Of a stretch of DNA of 64,000 bases, positions 2-54,431 are shown one piece after another. The notes under the pieces are model-generated. The model did no database searches, was not told where the DNA came from, and saw only the letters and a list, made by a program, of their open reading frames with translations. The DNA lies in NCBI GenBank assembly GCA_024613925.1, contig GCA_024613925.1_4713.1; one strand, written 5' to 3'. This DNA is from a phage. The position numbers were made by a program, and so were the translations under genes. Position 1 is the first letter of the stretch; each line of letters opens with the position of its first letter.

Positions 2-667
2 GTAAGCTTTGCGAAGCTCTATCAAGTTGACAACAGCGCAATTACCAAACGTATGCGACAGATCATGACCGAAGGTCCGGTCATGACCGATGAACTTTTG
101 CGTGAGTATGCAAACGAACTGGGTGAAACGAACTCCCGCACGTTGGATCTGTCCGACAACGGTTCTGTTATCATTGAGCTTGAAGTGCCGAAGATTTCAC
201 GACAAATCGCCATGGGTGAACGTTGGTTAAGCGATACCTTGGAAGATCTGCGTGATATTCTATCGCGTCCGTCAATGACCGAAGAAGAGCGTGATCGTGT
301 TATTCGTGAACGTCAGTTCTATAGCTGGATGCGTCAGTATGATGCATGGATCAAATCGATGCATGTGTCAGTAAACGGTACCATGCGTCGTGTAAGCGAT
401 GCGGATACGGCAACGGTATTAGCACAGCTGTCTCGTGACAGCGACCTTCGTGAACGCTATATCGATGGGCTGATGCAATTCATCGGTGATTCGACGATTG
501 CGCTCGCAGCAATGCCTGCCTGGAAATGTCCGAAATGTAATGCCGATATTGCTGACAATCTGCGCGACCAGAAATACTACGATCTGATTGCTTTGGATGT
601 ACCCCAGCTTTTTTTTACCCTAAACTCCGTCCAATCTCTTCAGGAGGGGATGGACGCGGTATTCTAA
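2..667 (+). CDS. hypothetical protein, 5' end outside window (C-terminal CxxC pair WKCPKC)
   Basis: Reading frame open from window edge to TAA 665-667; first ATG at 53. Confidence 0.5.
   Translation, partial: VSFAKLYQVDNSAITKRMRQIMTEGPVMTDELLREYANELGETNSRTLDLSDNGSVIIELEVPKISRQIAMGERWLSDTLEDLRDILSRPSMTEEERDRVIRERQFYSWMRQYDAWIKSMHVSVNGTMRRVSDADTATVLAQLSRDSDLRERYIDGLMQFIGDSTIALAAMPAWKCPKCNADIADNLRDQKYYDLIALDVPQLFFTLNSVQSLQEGMDAVF
609..616 (+). other. T8 homopolymer forming a U_UUU_UUU -1 slippery heptamer (610-616) in the zero frame of ORF 2..667
   Basis: Read directly: codons CTT TTT TTT ACC in frame of ORF 53..667; the -1 frame is open from 556 to 1089. Confidence 0.9.
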
Positions 668-729
668 TCGATCCGCGATACGGGTTACATGACGGACAAC
701 TTGTTCGTAATGATGAAAAAATCTGGGAA

Positions 730-1089
730 TTGCTGTTAGCGCGTAAAGGCGACGGCGGCATGAAACTGAACATCGAAATGGGTATTGCGTACGATACCAT
801 GTTTGGTTTGTACGACCGCGTTAACGAATGGACACCGTTGAAATGGGTGGCTCAGCATCCCGCTGAAGATCCCTGGGACAGATTAGGGATTAAACCCTTA
901 ATCGAGGATTATGTTCGATTCGGTATTAAAGAGTTCATGACGCTGGATGCGTTTTTAAAAGCACCGTATCCTTACGCGCAAACGGTACTCAAAATCGCAC
1001 AAGACGAACTGCGGAAACGTAGTGCGGTACTGGACGACGATGAGGACAAGTTACGACGAGAAGAAGAACGTTTACGAAACGGAAAATAA
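730..1089 (+). CDS. hypothetical protein; possibly the -1 frameshift extension of the upstream ORF rather than an independent gene
   Basis: Frame open from 556; first in-frame start is TTG at 730 with no ATG until M at ~760; TAA at 1087-1089. Confidence 0.4.
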   Translation: MLLARKGDGGMKLNIEMGIAYDTMFGLYDRVNEWTPLKWVAQHPAEDPWDRLGIKPLIEDYVRFGIKEFMTLDAFLKAPYPYAQTVLKIAQDELRKRSAVLDDDEDKLRREEERLRNGK

Positions 1090-1090
1090 A

Positions 1091-1600
1091 ATGGCGAGAT
1101 TTACCAGTTTGATTGGGTTGGATATTTGGGAAACACCGGCTGACGTTCGGGTTATTCCTGTCAACACCGTCGGTGTGATGGGACGCGGTCTTGCCAAGCA
1201 GGCGGCCGATCGTGTACCCGGTCTTCTTGAAGCGTACCGTAAGCAATGTCAAGATGGGTTTAAGGTGGGCGAAGTCGTGTCATATCAGCATGGCGAGAAC
1301 GATCAGCTCACCTACGTGTTGTTTCCATCAAAATCGGATTGGCGCGAAAAAACACGACGTGAGTATATCGTTAATGGTTTACTGGCGTTAAAAGCGTGGT
1401 TATTGGAGCTTCAGTTCGAAAGAGACGGCTTCTCATACCACCGTCCGGCTGAACCGTTGATTGTCGCAATTCCTCCGGTTGGTTCTGGTTGCGGTAATAT
1501 CGGTTACGGACAATCCGAAACAATCCAGCCTCAATGGGTACGCGCACAAATCAAACAGTATCTTGCCACCGTGCCAAACGTTCATTTCTACTTGTTCTAA
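1091..1600 (+). CDS. macro domain protein (ADP-ribose binding/hydrolase fold)
   Basis: Motifs VIPVNTVGVMGRGLAKQ and PPVGSGCGNIGY resemble macrodomain Gly-rich signatures; ATG at 1091 one nt after upstream stop. Confidence 0.55.
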   Translation: MARFTSLIGLDIWETPADVRVIPVNTVGVMGRGLAKQAADRVPGLLEAYRKQCQDGFKVGEVVSYQHGENDQLTYVLFPSKSDWREKTRREYIVNGLLALKAWLLELQFERDGFSYHRPAEPLIVAIPPVGSGCGNIGYGQSETIQPQWVRAQIKQYLATVPNVHFYLF

Positions 1601-6641: not shown

Positions 6642-7226
6642 TTACACAGTTGTAGGAAATTCCGGCCAATCGATATTTGGTGCTGTTGATGTGTCAACGC
6701 GATGCAGAGCCACCCGATACTTTTTCCATGCCGTCAACATGGACACCTCTTCTTCCGTTGCGATCTCCAGATCCACAGCATCCTGAAGTGGCGTAATATG
6801 ATCATTCGCCGCCTTCATCAGACTGTTTTTTGTTTCTTCCGCCTCCCGGATCCGGAACAGTTTTTCTGCTTCCGTATCCTTCACCCAGGCTGTGCCGTCC
6901 CACTTCTGAAACTCCCCTTCCGGCGATAACCAGGTAACATTTTCCGGTAACGGACCGAGTTCAGAAATAAATAACGCGTCGCCGGAAGCCACGTCATAAA
7001 CCGTTTTACCCCGATGATCTTCAACGAGATGCCACGATTCATTTTCATTGTTAAAAACTGCCACAAAACCAGCAGGAATTTCCGGTGGGGCGATATCTGT
7101 AGAATTAGCTGGCAGACCTGTATGAGGCGGAATATATGCATCACCTTCACCAATAAATTCATTAGTTCCGGCCAGCAGATTATAAATTTTTATGGTCCGT
7201 GGTTGTTCACTCATTCTGAATGCCAT
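6642..7226 (-). CDS. tail fibre assembly protein (Tfa-type chaperone)
   Basis: C-terminal region [45 protein letters not shown] typical of lambda/P2-type Tfa; start ATG overlaps fibre stop (TAATG). Confidence 0.8.
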
Positions 7227-10200
7227 TATGCAAGCCTCACGATGTAGTTAAATGCAATGTTTTTGACGGTGTTTTCCGCGTTACCCGTAGCGTTAACGGT
7301 GATGGTGTGTCCATGTGATCCAATCGCAACCGAGTGCGTATGCGCACCAATACCTACAGTATGTGCATGTGCGCCAGAACTTGCTGCAGTACCAGACAGC
7401 GAGTGGGTATGTGCTCCATCTGATGATGTCTTCCCTGATATACGGGTCATACCTGAGCCACCTTCCAGTGGTACAATTGGTGCTTTGACTGAAACCTGGG
7501 TATAACCGTTAGGAAAGAGTGCACCATTATTAGAATTCGTATATGGTCCAGAACTCCGGTGTTGGTGCCCACCTGCACTATTTGCAGTCCCGCTCACACT
7601 GTGTGTATGTGCCCCGGTGTTATTCGTGGATTTAGTGCCGTAATCAAACGACGATGTGGTTTTCGTCCCCAAATCCGTATTGGATGCGCTGGCGCTATGG
7701 TTGTGCGATTTTATGCCGTCCTGTTCCTGAGACAATACGGCACGACCACTGGCAGGTTTGCCCTTAATCGTCCAGCCACGCATATCAGGAATAACGCCTG
7801 ACGGATAAGCCACTGCAAGTTTCGGGTATACAGATTTGTCAAAAGTCTGCCCTTGCATCAGAGCATAACCAGACGGAACGGTATCTGAAGGCCATGGAAT
7901 AGGCGCGCCAACAGGCAACTCCGGAGGTGCGGTAAACTCACCCAACTCCTTTATTGCCTCAATAAGTAGAGCTATTTGGGCAGAGATAGAGACCGTTAAA
8001 ACGTCCTCACCATTAGCGTCTTTATAAGTAGAAACTGCTTCAGGTAACACTTTTTGTAAGGTTTGTGCTACAACGCCAACCTCACGATGAACATTAGTGG
8101 ATTTAAAGTTCTCCTTTTTGTCGTATATTAAACCTGACAATTTCTTTACCTTCTCCAATGCATTAGTTATTGGAGAGAAATTACTTTTCAGCCGGGCGTC
8201 TGATCGTGTATAAACTTCGTTAAAGTTACCGTTCCCATCACAATCTATATTTCCAGTAACGTTGAGAGGTACATAGCTTTGAACAGCCTCTCTCGTAAAG
8301 CGTAAAACGTGGTCATAATCGGCGTAAACATCTAGAACGCCGTCCCCGTTCTGCTTAAAGCCGGTGTCATCATCCCCTAAAGCTATGGAGTTCTCACCTA
8401 AATGATTCTCGGTTCCAATACCCAGATTATCGCTTAAAATACTATCAATAGCAAATATTGAATGAGAACAATAAAACCCTCGTCCATTGTTAAAATCCAA
8501 AATGGTTTGTGCGTTCGTGCTTTCTGTCGCGGGATTAGTTGCTCCCCACTTATAGGTTGTTTGACCGACGGTATAATTCTTGGTCGGAACACTAACCGAT
8601 AACCCTTCTTCGGCAAAAACTTGAATAGGGAAAGCCCTACCTTCGACGTAAAAAACGCTGCACACATCATCATCTTCCGCACCTGTTACAATGGAATGGA
8701 TTGCGCGCTCATCAGTATCATATATCGAAAAATACCCTGCTGCGTATGAACCACGATCAGTCCAACCGCCCGGCATTACCGTTCCATTGAATTCGCAGTT
8801 ATTCATTGCATAATCACCACTGGCAGATGTGGTTGTAATAACCACTCTGGAAGCCAGTTCGCCAGTGCTACCAGTGGAACGCCGGAAAATAACTGGATAC
8901 CACTTTCCGCCAACGGCTTTAGACGGCGCGTTAAATACGTACTGCCGCATTCCTTTTTTCTTATCCACCTCGTCTTTGCTGTAAACATTAATGTTACTCA
9001 GGAAGCGACCCTTATCAGGAATATCTGCGCCGTTAGAACTGCGTTGCATAGCGCCCGCAGCTTTATCAACAGTGGTTTTCAAACCCAGGAAGTTAATGAT
9101 ATCGGCCGTCGACCCTTTCGCTAACAAATCACGCGCAGTCGAGGTGAAATCCGCTAACCCTACCTGATTACTACCGGTAAAATAAGGGAGTTTATTCGCT
9201 TCTGTTGTTAGGTTAGACCACGCCGTGAGCAGCGCGTTCAAAGGTTGTTTACCCGCCAACGTATTGGTTATTGTCGTTGCGAAATTAGGATCGTTCCCTA
9301 AAGCTTGAGCCAGCTCATTAAGCGTATTTAGCGCTTCTGGAGACGAGTCGATCAGTGATGCGATAGCACGCATCACAAATTCCGTGTTGGCAATCTGTCG
9401 ACTGCTATCGTTCTCTGCAGCCGTAGGCGCTGCCGGGATACCGGTGAACACAGGGCTATTAAGATCTGCCTTGAGAGCGATGAGACGTTTAAGTGCGTCG
9501 ACATCGACTTTCAGGTTTTCCCATCCGATGAGAGAACCACCACTGCTGGCATGGTAACGGTTGTACCAGAAGTCACCGTTAACGCCTAAAAAGAATATTC
9601 CCTTCTCTTCGTTTTGTGGGCCGGAACTATTTCGTGACGAGCTGATGTAATTGATTTCAATGAGGCCGTTAAACGTCACTCCCGGGATGATTTTGTTGTC
9701 TCCAGCCGACTGTGATACCTGGTAAATCCCCGGGGTTGCGGCTTTGACCCATGTTAAGAATTCTGTTACTCCAGCGGTACCGCTGAAATTCTTAACGTCG
9801 GTAAGTATTGCCCCATAACCGAACATACCGGGTAGAGCCACTCGTCCGTTGGTGCGGTCACGAATATCTGTTGCAACAACAGGCAATTGTTTACGAACGG
9901 CATTAACCGCTTTAGGCGTGGCCGATTTTGTCTCGTCGTCGCTATCGGTTTCATTACTTAGAATAGTTAAACCGCGCGTAGCAGTCGTTGCATCAGGAAG
10001 AAATGCGTTATCCAACACCTTAAGCTGTATTGCACTCGTATTACTAACAACGACATGCACCTGACAGTTAAGAACGCTGGTTGCGCCTTCGGTAGGCGTA
10101 GGCTTATATCTTTCTGGCGCACTGCAGACGGCAATCAGAACACCTTGGTCATCATACAAACCGATCTCACGTACCCAGAACCCACCTTGACCAGCAGGAA

Positions 10201-10438
10201 TAATACCCTCAACGATAATCCTGGTTGTGCTGTCACCATCCGCATGGATATTAGAAACTTCCCCACGATAAACTTCGTGAACAAGCGCTGTTTGGCTGGC
10301 GTTCGGGGTTGGGATCGAGCCGTTACCATCACCAACGGCAAAGTGTGTGATTTTTAGTTTCTCACCGTCGGGAAGTAACGCAGCGGTGATACGTTCTGCT
10401 CCTTTATCGGTAACTACCGTTATATATGCTGTACTCAT
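7226..10438 (-). CDS. long tail fibre protein with C-terminal His-x-His repeat tip
   Basis: 1070 aa; repeats [38 protein letters not shown]; Gly/Ser/Thr-rich; followed by Tfa gene. Confidence 0.8.
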
Positions 10439-17421: not shown

Positions 17422-17475
17422 TAAAAAAAAGAAAAATAGGAAAACGGTGTTCATCCTTTTAGGGATGAACACCGT
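17422..17475 (-). terminator. intrinsic terminator: 13-bp perfect stem followed by U-rich tract on minus strand
   Basis: acggtgttcatcc/ggatgaacaccgt stem 17444-17475; minus strand then reads TTTCCTATTTTTCTTTTTTTT. Confidence 0.7.
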
Positions 17476-52952: not shown

Positions 52953-54410
52953 ATGAAACTCAAACAAAGCTGGAAAGACGAACTTCTCGCGTTAGTAAAT
53001 AGCAAAAACGGTTTACAGCTGACATTAGCCGACGTAAAATTTGAACTAACTGAACCGGTAAGCGAAGTGCCCGGAACGGTTGTTGTTACGATCAAACCGA
53101 ACGATAATAGCCGTTACTTTAACGAGCAGTCTCTGACCTACATCCGTCGAGACATCGCTAAAAACTTCACCGGGATCCCGTTACGGGTTATCGTTAAAAA
53201 TGATACTGCTGTACGGGATATCATCAACACGATCGCCGAACGTTACGGATTAGTATTTGACACAACCGTCGACTTCCTCGAATCCGAGCTGAATAAACAA
53301 ATTACGTTCGAAGACACCGGTATTAAAGACATTACGGTTCCGGTTGCAAACACGTCTTATGTTTGGGCTGGTAATCTTCAGTTCAATATCGCTAACGATA
53401 CGTTGAGCTTGATTACAATCATCAAGCAAACCAATCTTACGAATCTGGTTTATCTGGATGGTGTTGAAGCTGACACATCGGGTTCGTTACTATTAGCGAC
53501 GGCCTCGATTATTGACGATACCGGAAATACCGAAGCGGCTGAAGGTATCCTTGACGCCGCGTACTTCCAGAATGTCCTGAACGTCATGGTTCGTTATGGT
53601 GATATTACCAGCGAACAAATGCAACAAGCAATGCAGACAATTAACCAAAGCGAAGACGCACGTAAAGTAGTGACGAGGTCATACGGTGACGTCGAATTAC
53701 TGGTAACCGCCAAGAAAGATTGGGTTATCGGTAGCCTTAAGGGTGTTATGGCTGTTGTTCGCGTTCTACCTAAACCAATCCAATACGTTTTTAAAACAAA
53801 AGGCGGCAGCGTTGCAATGTCATTAGCAGGTTGGAAAAATGTTTCCATCGATTGGGGTGATGGGACTAAGACGACGGAGACCGCCAGCAATAATGAATAT
53901 CGGCACTACTATGCGGACGGTGACACTACAGAACGTACGGTCGTCGCTACGGGTACTCCCTCCATAATCGTCGATACATCCGCAATGCATGGCTTCATTG
54001 GTGAAAACATCACTGAAATCGTTGACTGGAACAACGGATTACCTTACGCCCCAGTATACCTTTCGAGGTACAATTTAATTAAGGTTCCCGATTATATCCC
54101 GTCATATTGGACATCGTTAAATGGTATGTTTATGCAATGCCGCGCTCTTAACGACGTGAACATCACCAAATGGAACACCAGCAACATTACTTCAATGGAT
54201 AACCTCTTCTACAATTGCGCTGCGTTCAATCAGCCGATCGGTTCGTGGGATGTTTCGTCTGTTAAGAGTGTAAACAATATGTTGTCTGGGTGCTCCGCGT
54301 TCAATCAGGATCTGAGTGGTTGGACATTCCCGGCAGGCACTTCACACATCGACTACGACAACACTACCCACGCATGGCAGTCCGATTACAAACCACACTT
54401 CACCGAGTAA
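52953..54410 (+). CDS. receptor-binding protein: N-terminal adapter module plus C-terminal BspA-like leucine-rich repeats (paralog E)
   Basis: N-terminus closely matches paralog C (SLTYIRRDIAKNFTGIPLRVIV, AERYGLVFD); repeats KWNTSNITSMDNLFYNCAAFNQPIGSWDVSSVKSVNNMLSGCSAFNQDLSGW. Confidence 0.65.
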   Translation: MKLKQSWKDELLALVNSKNGLQLTLADVKFELTEPVSEVPGTVVVTIKPNDNSRYFNEQSLTYIRRDIAKNFTGIPLRVIVKNDTAVRDIINTIAERYGLVFDTTVDFLESELNKQITFEDTGIKDITVPVANTSYVWAGNLQFNIANDTLSLITIIKQTNLTNLVYLDGVEADTSGSLLLATASIIDDTGNTEAAEGILDAAYFQNVLNVMVRYGDITSEQMQQAMQTINQSEDARKVVTRSYGDVELLVTAKKDWVIGSLKGVMAVVRVLPKPIQYVFKTKGGSVAMSLAGWKNVSIDWGDGTKTTETASNNEYRHYYADGDTTERTVVATGTPSIIVDTSAMHGFIGENITEIVDWNNGLPYAPVYLSRYNLIKVPDYIPSYWTSLNGMFMQCRALNDVNITKWNTSNITSMDNLFYNCAAFNQPIGSWDVSSVKSVNNMLSGCSAFNQDLSGWTFPAGTSHIDYDNTTHAWQSDYKPHFTE

Positions 54411-54431
54411 AAAAAAAAATAGTTAGCACAT

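Follow-up and report, generated by a model that had tools for sequence, protein, structure and literature searches.

A probable programmed −1 ribosomal frameshift in a conserved core gene of nucleus-forming jumbo phages

Frameshifting in phage morphogenesis genes

The conserved frameshift in long-tailed phages' tail-assembly-chaperone genes was reportedly described by Xu, Hendrix and Duda in 2004. In lambda G/GT and its counterparts, a −1 slip takes place in a morphogenesis gene when the ribosome is within a few codons of its stop (PMC10885494, PMC12846349). The short form is the major product and the long form the minor one; they have a common N-terminus and differ by an extension of ∼150 amino acids; no strong stimulator is required, and the downstream open reading frame (ORF) is routinely misannotated as a separate hypothetical gene. 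On its anatomy, namely short and long forms related by a −1 shift near the 3′ end, the same type of arrangement would be displayed by cg18, a core gene of nucleus-forming jumbo phages. The 3′ part of cg18 opens a 64,000-nucleotide stretch of phage DNA (GenBank assembly GCA_024613925.1, contig GCA_024613925.1_4713.1), which is the window analysed here and to which the positions below refer. Comparison of this locus with its relatives makes it very probable that this conserved jumbo-phage gene specifies two products by programmed −1 ribosomal frameshifting.

The differences from lambda concern the protein, the heptamer and the setting. The upstream protein of cg18 comprises 554 amino acids as opposed to ∼100–150, and the heptamer is U_UUU_UUU rather than G_GGA_AAG. 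The gene does not lie between the tail tube and tape measure genes, and a small tail-assembly-chaperone fold was not recovered (Foldseek against named chaperones, E-values of at least 0.88). On this reading cg18 works like G/GT, and homology to G/GT is not claimed.

A further parallel is provided by the chaperone frameshift of the Vandenendeviridae and Andersonviridae (phage Adele, Pakpunaviruses), in which a poly-T motif, an invariant GTTTTT, is situated at the 3′ end of the short form (PMC12846349). In the Adele system the −1 frame is open through an annotated-intergenic stretch in all relatives, the same kind of comparative argument as that used below; unlike cg18, it involves another gene family, another lineage and a position directly upstream of the tape measure gene (PMC12846349).

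The mechanism itself is classical, not new. In bacterial translation, −1 ribosomal shifts on X_XXY_YYZ heptamers underlie tau/gamma production from Escherichia coli dnaX and operate in IS3-family transposases, and U_UUU_UUC is among the heptamers used by insertion sequence (IS) elements (PMC4066793). The dnaX site differs in its A_AAA_AAG heptamer, upstream Shine-Dalgarno-like element and downstream hairpin, and there the shift shortens the protein, whereas that of cg18 would lengthen it and conserved stimulators were not found. Neither the literature nor database annotations yielded a description of frameshifting for PhiKZ gp77, for Goslar gp81/82 or for jumbo phages in general. The cg18 frameshift appears to be unreported, and to be shared by all of the relatives surveyed, a 200-kb Bacillus phage among them.

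A slippery heptamer near the end of cg18

The first 2.1 kb of the window are 96.6% identical to Escherichia phage vB_EcoM_Goslar, a jumbo phage of 237 kb, and the upstream ORF is the orthologue of Goslar gp081, the full gene of which has 554 codons in Goslar. Goslar gp081 corresponds to PhiKZ gp077 and RAY gp267 and is listed as cg18, "hypothetical protein", among the ∼70 core genes that define nucleus-forming jumbo phages (Chimalliviridae), its function being given as unknown (Prichard et al., PMC10299810 supplement). The relevant features of the window are the following.

610–616, + strand: slippery heptamer U_UUU_UUU (X_XXY_YYZ), within the T8 run 609–616; Phe codons at 611–613 and 614–616
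2..667, + strand: 3′ part of the zero-frame ORF (frame 2), 221 codons and stop; the start lies to the left of the window
616..1089, + strand: −1 extension, 157 codons (YPKLRPISSGG...RLRNGK) and TAA at 1087–1089
617..667, + strand: dual-coding overlap, comprising the zero-frame tail TLNSVQSLQEGMDAVF with its stop and, in the −1 frame, codons 1–17 of the extension
668..759, + strand: stretch separating the gp081 stop from the gp082 ATG, called intergenic in Goslar
760..1089, + strand: ORF called gp082 in Goslar, 109 amino acids

The zero-frame codons at the site are CTT (608–610) TTT TTT ACC, which places an X_XXY_YYZ heptamer in the zero-frame phase with both tRNAs able to re-pair in the −1 frame. 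The zero frame ends at TAA 665–667. Frame 1 is open from 556 to the TAA at 1087–1089, the two-frame overlap amounting to 112 nucleotides (nt), and its start codons are TTG 730 and then ATG 760, the latter being the start annotated in Goslar. The product of a −1 slip at the site would read ...PQLFFYPKLRP.... The T8 run, the codon phase, the overlap, the opening of frame 1 at 556, the first start at 730 and the fusion junction had all been pointed out in an earlier, sequence-only reading of the window, and each of them is confirmed.

A single heptamer taken alone would be no proof of frameshifting, and its significance rests on conservation in homologues. T7 and longer runs are depleted in the window: shuffled sequences give 23.8 ± 6.2 overlapping matches, the window only 9, distributed over 3 loci. 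The only other such runs in the 64 kb, at 17423–17430 (T8) and 54409–54419 (T11), are on the − strand, outside any ORF of at least 150 amino acids and beside ORF ends; they may be terminator or promoter elements.

In the mechanism proposed, most ribosomes on the cg18 (gp081) mRNA would read UUU UUU (611–616) in frame and stop 16 codons further on, at 665–667, yielding the protein of 554 amino acids. A minority would slip back by one base on U_UUU_UUU, the two tRNA-Phe re-pairing on 610–615, and would continue with UAC (616–618) as the next codon and read the −1 frame to 1089. The trans-frame product would then have ∼695 amino acids (∼79 kDa, our own estimate), of which the first 538 residues would be common with gp081 and the remaining 157 would form a helical C-terminal extension; its predicted tryptic junction peptide is YYDLIALDVPQLFFYPK. 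The slip, which we infer, would probably be of low efficiency, from a few percent to ∼15%. When A-site tetramers are ranked by their proneness to shift in E. coli, U_UUC comes second and U_UUU third (Sharma et al. 2014, PMC4066793), and heptamers of the type H_HH.U_UU.Y are among the most efficient (PMC4066793).

Conservation of the site across relatives

A tblastn search with the fused protein retrieved 98 phage records, and nearly all of the matches break off precisely at the residue of the slip site; the downstream domain, where it could be detected, was invariably in the −1 frame. The phages matched infect Pseudomonas, Erwinia, Ralstonia, Vibrio, Xanthomonas, Burkholderia, Proteus, Salmonella and Bacillus. 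Clustering at 80% identity of the loci collected from a phage collection, IMG/VR and Logan left 31 non-redundant loci, with hosts that include Pseudomonas, Erwinia, Ralstonia, Vibrio, Xanthomonas and Bacillus. All 31 harbour [T/G]_TTT_TT[T/C/A] at the aligned Phe-Phe and in the same phase: T_TTT_TTT in 16 loci, T_TTT_TTC in seven, T_TTT_TTA in one, G_TTT_TTT in four and G_TTT_TTC in three. The U_UUY A-site tetramer is thus found in 30 of the 31 relatives (U_UUA in the other) and the full heptamer in 24. The surroundings are equally constant, as in every locus the zero-frame stop follows 8–16 codons past the site and a −1 ORF of 150–179 amino acids is open through it.

Conservation of the nucleotides at the site goes beyond the demands of the protein sequence. 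TTT encodes the first Phe in 31/31 loci, against 202/537 (38%) of the other Phe codons in the same genes, and in two GC-rich relatives TTT accounts for none of 14 and none of 12 other Phe codons and yet is used at the first Phe of the slip site. This codon would have to be TTT because the A-site tRNA has to re-pair. The naive product of probabilities for TTT at this position, 1e-16, is overstated since the sequences are related, the direction of the effect being clear. The wobble base that precedes the first Phe is T in 24/31 loci.

The zero-frame tail downstream of the site has a conserved pattern of its own, xLxxx[Q/H]R. Among six close relatives, 5 of the 51 sites in the overlap 617–667 are variable, compared with 114 of 540 upstream, a near-invariance that is expected because dual coding would constrain the overlap. 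As the zero-frame tail is conserved, both products appear to be selected.

Fused homologues are absent from the collections searched. A hidden Markov model (HMM) of the extension, run against 1.84 billion representative proteins, gave 48 matches, all of 92–160 amino acids, and a profile search with the upstream protein gave 11, all of 509–561; neither contained a fusion. A word-indexed protein search returned no match for the window fragment and only two proteins for the extension. Whether homologues are single or split ORFs, a check that the sequence-only reading had proposed, can be answered for the set surveyed: the gene is never a single ORF and is split in all 31 loci. The maintenance of the split in every lineage surveyed, down to ∼20% amino acid identity, reads as the signature of a recoding site, not of decay.

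Within the Goslar clade, identical T8 runs and split ORFs occur in 10/10 sequences read at the site. The set consists of the window, Goslar as deposited in GenBank, contigs from IMG/VR (two) and Logan (five) and a Salmonella isolate assembly, and it extends down to ∼50% amino acid identity with the window protein; the heptamer and the 12 nt that follow it (ACCCTAAACTCC) are invariant in all ten. The separate product of 109 amino acids is called on more than 700 contigs, mostly of ∼240 kb, from E. coli, Salmonella and Shigella assemblies, and the exact fused protein of 695 amino acids is absent from a collection of 15 billion proteins.

Products detected in the Goslar virion

Liquid chromatography–tandem mass spectrometry (LC-MS/MS) of Goslar virions identified gp081 by 24 peptides, with 49% coverage, an area of 147000 and an estimated 15–35 copies, and gp082 by one peptide with an area of 4340, ∼3% of that of gp081 (Table S4, preprint 10.64898/2026.04.21.720040). 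The gp082 region is therefore translated, at a low level that would fit an inefficient shift. The LC-MS/MS database listed gp081 and gp082 separately, and a junction peptide could not be matched for this reason. The virion preparation also contains chimallin and PhuZ (10.64898/2026.04.21.720040). Both gp081 and gp082 are outside the Goslar cryo-electron microscopy (cryo-EM) model, though all hub and inner-baseplate density has been assigned.

Alternative explanations

The same fused protein would arise by transcriptional slippage if RNA polymerase stuttered on T8 (A8 in the template), leaving one extra U or two fewer in some of the mRNAs. Bacterial polymerases start slipping on runs of about the length of T8, and the RNA polymerases used by these phages for transcription are non-canonical multisubunit enzymes of their own. 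UUUUUUU is depleted, whatever the frame, in the genes of E. coli, and slippage of the polymerase is a possible reason (Sharma et al. 2014, PMC4066793); T runs are depleted in the window as well. Within the Goslar clade the protein outcome is identical and the comparative data do not separate the two mechanisms. It is the wider family that makes slippage of the polymerase improbable: in 7/31 relatives showing the same split the run is only T5 (G_TTT_TTC: L024, L034, L040) or T6 (L019, L035, L037, L038), and in eight more it is T6 followed by a different base (seven T_TTT_TTC, and T_TTT_TTA in AgentSmith). Runs of T5 and T6 are poor substrates for polymerase slippage, and what is conserved is the codon-phased U_UUY A-site tetramer.

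A second possibility is that there are two independent genes, with translation of the downstream ORF starting at TTG 730 or ATG 760, or resuming by re-initiation once the stop at 667 has been passed, and with the heptamer merely reflecting Phe-Phe. Every public annotation inspected has two genes, and PHROGs assigns the upstream ORF to phrog_4585 and the downstream ORF to phrog_12109, that is, to separate families; at the protein level, moreover, FF is present even in T4 gp26, encoded TTC TTT and without an extension. The position of the potential starts is difficult to reconcile with such an arrangement. The first ATG, GTG or TTG in the extension is located anywhere from codon 9 to codon 102. 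AgentSmith, for example, has it at codon 88 and a PhiKZ-like phage at codon 86; the RAY extension has its first start, a GTG, at codon 69 and its first ATG at codon 115. The late first starts (PhiKZ-like L029, RAY, AgentSmith, L025) fall 3′ of a conserved GH..FG motif and in some loci also 3′ of an AY..G motif. Homologues consistently encoding independent genes with their own starts, which the sequence-only reading had named as evidence against frameshifting, were not seen; the extension has no conserved start, and conserved residues precede the first one.

The stretch 668–759, 5′ of the annotated ATG, is informative in the same respect. Of the 24 sites in it that vary among the six close relatives, 18 are third positions of −1-frame codons, the same pattern as in the annotated gp082 (49 of 62), and by this measure it evolves as −1-frame coding sequence. 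The downstream ORF is always in the −1 frame, no strong Shine-Dalgarno sequence precedes the frame-1 starts at 730 and 760, and the use of TTT at the first Phe, against codon bias, and of a preceding wobble T are features that Phe-Phe at the protein level does not account for. The −1 ORF is long, open from the site and very probably not expressed by initiation of its own. Two independent genes are accordingly considered very unlikely, and gp082 would be not a gene in its own right but the C-terminal part of a trans-frame protein.

Finally, a homopolymer sequencing or assembly error, or a recent inactivating indel in a true ORF of 695 codons, the alternative raised by the sequence-only reading, is refuted, its likelihood being negligible: homopolymers are prone to errors and T9 would restore one ORF, but the T8 run is the same in every Goslar-clade sequence read, the split product is called on more than 700 contigs, the split is kept across ∼30 lineages at <30% amino acid identity with a zero-frame tail that is itself conserved, and fused homologues number zero among 1.84 billion representative proteins. 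The programmed −1 frameshift, the other option put forward in that reading, is supported by the conserved site, phase and frame and by the lack of fused or independently initiated homologues.

Evidence against frameshifting and the downstream RNA

Several observations weigh against a programmed frameshift. The FF dipeptide is itself conserved, T4 gp26 included, and part of the conservation is therefore at the amino acid level, while the codon statistics count related sequences as independent. The G at heptamer position 1 in 7/31 loci implies imperfect P-site re-pairing there. The single gp082 peptide cannot tell a fusion protein from a separate one, and no junction-spanning peptide has been seen. 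The RNA downstream of the site offers no help either: across 30 loci its folds are no more structured than the same-gene background (mean z +0.16; pseudoknots were not searched), and RNAalifold on the Goslar clade gave −2.26 kcal/mol, with no consensus and no covariation support. Two hairpins can be drawn in the window.

626..654, + strand: candidate stimulatory hairpin, UCCGUCC (626–632) pairing with GGAUGGA (648–654); 7 bp, 15-nt loop, 9-nt spacer
655–677, + strand: second hairpin, directly after the candidate hairpin

In the Goslar group the local fold is more stable than 99% of same-gene windows (z = −2.2). The pairing register of the hairpin shifts in relatives at ∼50% identity, and outside close relatives the pairing is not in register. 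A family-wide stimulatory RNA structure was rejected on the folding of the 30 loci against background and on the RNAalifold result. The downstream fold that the sequence-only reading had suggested looking for has a candidate in the 7-bp hairpin of the Goslar group, and is not established as a conserved feature of the family. Lambda-type G/GT sites work without strong stimulators. No upstream Shine-Dalgarno-like stimulator was seen in the window sequence around the site. A strong Shine-Dalgarno-like AGGAGG with a zero-frame ATG (650–652) occupies 643–652 (+), 27 nt 3′ of the slip site. It belongs to the 3′ arm region of the hairpin candidate at 626–654 and is confined to the close Goslar group (GGGAGGGGATGG in L042 and L043); it may act as a ribosome pause or be incidental.

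Predicted fold and a possible role in baseplate assembly

The AlphaFold2 model of the zero-frame protein has a predicted template-modelling score (pTM) of 0.67, with residues 1–106 disordered, and has no structural neighbour in the PDB. A Foldseek search of BFVD ranked orthologues first, followed by a 'Baseplate protein' (E 3.3e-5) and three entries named 'Baseplate hub assembly protein, bacteriophage T4-like' (E 2.2e-4 to 5.7e-4). These baseplate matches have a probability of 1.00 and target TM-scores of 0.48–0.56, and they compare a predicted model with predicted models. Among such models, the fold is shared with the T4 gp26/gp51 superfamily. The AlphaFold2 model of the extension is all-alpha, with a long C-terminal helix, and matches only its own orthologues, all of which are annotated as separate small proteins.

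Sequence comparison points in the same direction, more faintly. Alignment by hhalign of the cg18 profile with the T4 gp26 and gp51 family is co-linear and weak (probability 29–30%, P ∼6e-4). No match to a gp26/gp51 family model was obtained, no T4 baseplate family being listed; in the family-library search each family matched one of the 26 members at most, and even at E ≤ 10 there was no match for the Goslar sequence. In searches of Pfam and NCBIfam with the upstream and fused proteins, the only near-threshold match, SbsC_C in one homologue, was treated as spurious. An HMM of the fused alignment had no match among PDB sequences.

The C-termini are nevertheless alike. T4 gp26 ends in LAVPIKCPECGKTHAHVIRGLKEFFELL, and the cg18 consensus is ...AIPxYxCPxC...PLDV..FFTL followed by 6–14 residues; hhalign aligns a shared C-terminal ...VP.KCP.C...FF.L-end in cg18 and gp26/gp51. 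The zero-frame product therefore ends about where gp26 ends, and the slip site coincides with the conserved FF. Taken together, the predicted fold and the C-terminal match place cg18, with moderate confidence, in the gp26/gp51 hub-assembly superfamily as a distant relative.

T4 gp26 (baseplate hub) and gp51 (hub assembly) are themselves paralogues, with an hhalign probability of 98% and E 1.5e-13 over 180 columns (T4 7803–9229), and both names occur among the fold matches for this reason; the paralogy is probably already known. T4 gp28 shows no similarity to cg18, gp26 or gp51.

Beyond the predicted fold, cg18 resembles T4 gp26 in being outside the cryo-EM baseplate model, and T4 gene 26 also gives two products, gp26 and 26′. 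The second product of gene 26 comes from a shorter coding sequence annotated within the gene, not from frameshifting; 26′ is made by internal initiation. At the end of T4 gene 26 an equivalent slip site was sought and rejected, as FF is encoded by the non-slippery TTC TTT and gene 25 follows directly, with no extension. The cg18 protein is also 2.5 times longer, with ∼300 additional N-terminal residues.

Given the predicted-fold similarity to T4 gp26/gp51, the short and long forms of cg18 may act together, at a fixed ratio, in baseplate-hub or tail assembly, in the manner of lambda G and GT. A bolder proposal, which is entertained only tentatively and may well be wrong, is that the cg18 frameshift is the long-missing tail-assembly-chaperone system of nucleus-forming jumbo phages, embodied in a gp26/gp51-like protein 2.5 times the T4 size.

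Implications

If the frameshift is real, the annotations inspected (Goslar, 201phi2-1, RAY, AgentSmith and SNUABM_48 among others) need correcting to one gene with two products, and gp082-like ORFs, seemingly poorly conserved orphans, would count as portions of a core protein. Results of knock-out, antisense or transposon work on either ORF would have to be reinterpreted, as hits in "gp082" would affect only the long form. The locus would also represent a deep-branching example of long-tailed phages setting the ratio of two assembly-factor isoforms by recoding. The fold link to gp26/gp51 would in addition suggest a function that can be tested, in baseplate-hub or tail assembly, for a core gene so far listed without one.

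Should the chaperone proposal also hold, the gp26/gp51 hub-assembly family would be linked to the G/GT-type frameshift strategy, and the trans-frame protein would be one of the family's core proteins that had previously gone unrecognized. The frameshift would go back to the ancestor of a lineage that takes in the Chimalliviridae and the related 200-kb Bacillus phage AgentSmith. T4 would have substituted for it a second, shorter product made inside gene 26, and a fixed short-to-long ratio would be essential for the 100-nm-wide jumbo baseplate.

Genomic neighbourhood and other features of the window

In Goslar, gp081 is flanked by gp078 (virion RNA polymerase subunit), gp079 and gp080 on one side and by the macro-domain gene gp083 on the other; the tube and sheath genes, gp217 and gp218, are not beside it. 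The macro-domain gene occupies 1040–1600 (+) in the window when its Goslar-annotated start, equivalent to 1040, is adopted, and it would then overlap the extension by 50 nt. An ATG at 1091 directly follows the stop of the extension (TAAAATG), and the PHROG phosphatase/macro match starts at residue 7 counted from this codon; position 1091 is probably the true start.

Goslar-like contigs of ∼235–259 kb that carry gp081/gp082 are present in hundreds of isolate assemblies of E. coli, Salmonella enterica and Shigella (NCBI, ENA, Logan), and single sequence variants of gp081/gp082 are found on 226, 225 and 143 contigs. These numbers suggest either widespread carriage, as pseudolysogeny or a carrier state, or contamination of clinical and food isolates.

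The tail-fibre module at 6642–10438 (−) is unlike that of Goslar, with ORFs of 194 and 1070 amino acids against gp089 (138) and gp090 (1324), a difference that looks like the exchange of a host-range cassette. Within the tail-fibre-assembly ORF 6642..7226, a full-length match to the Rfam family IS009 (163 bits; gathering score 117) is located at 6685–6883 (−), which suggests that the 'IS009 sRNA' family is really a fragment of a phage tfa gene.

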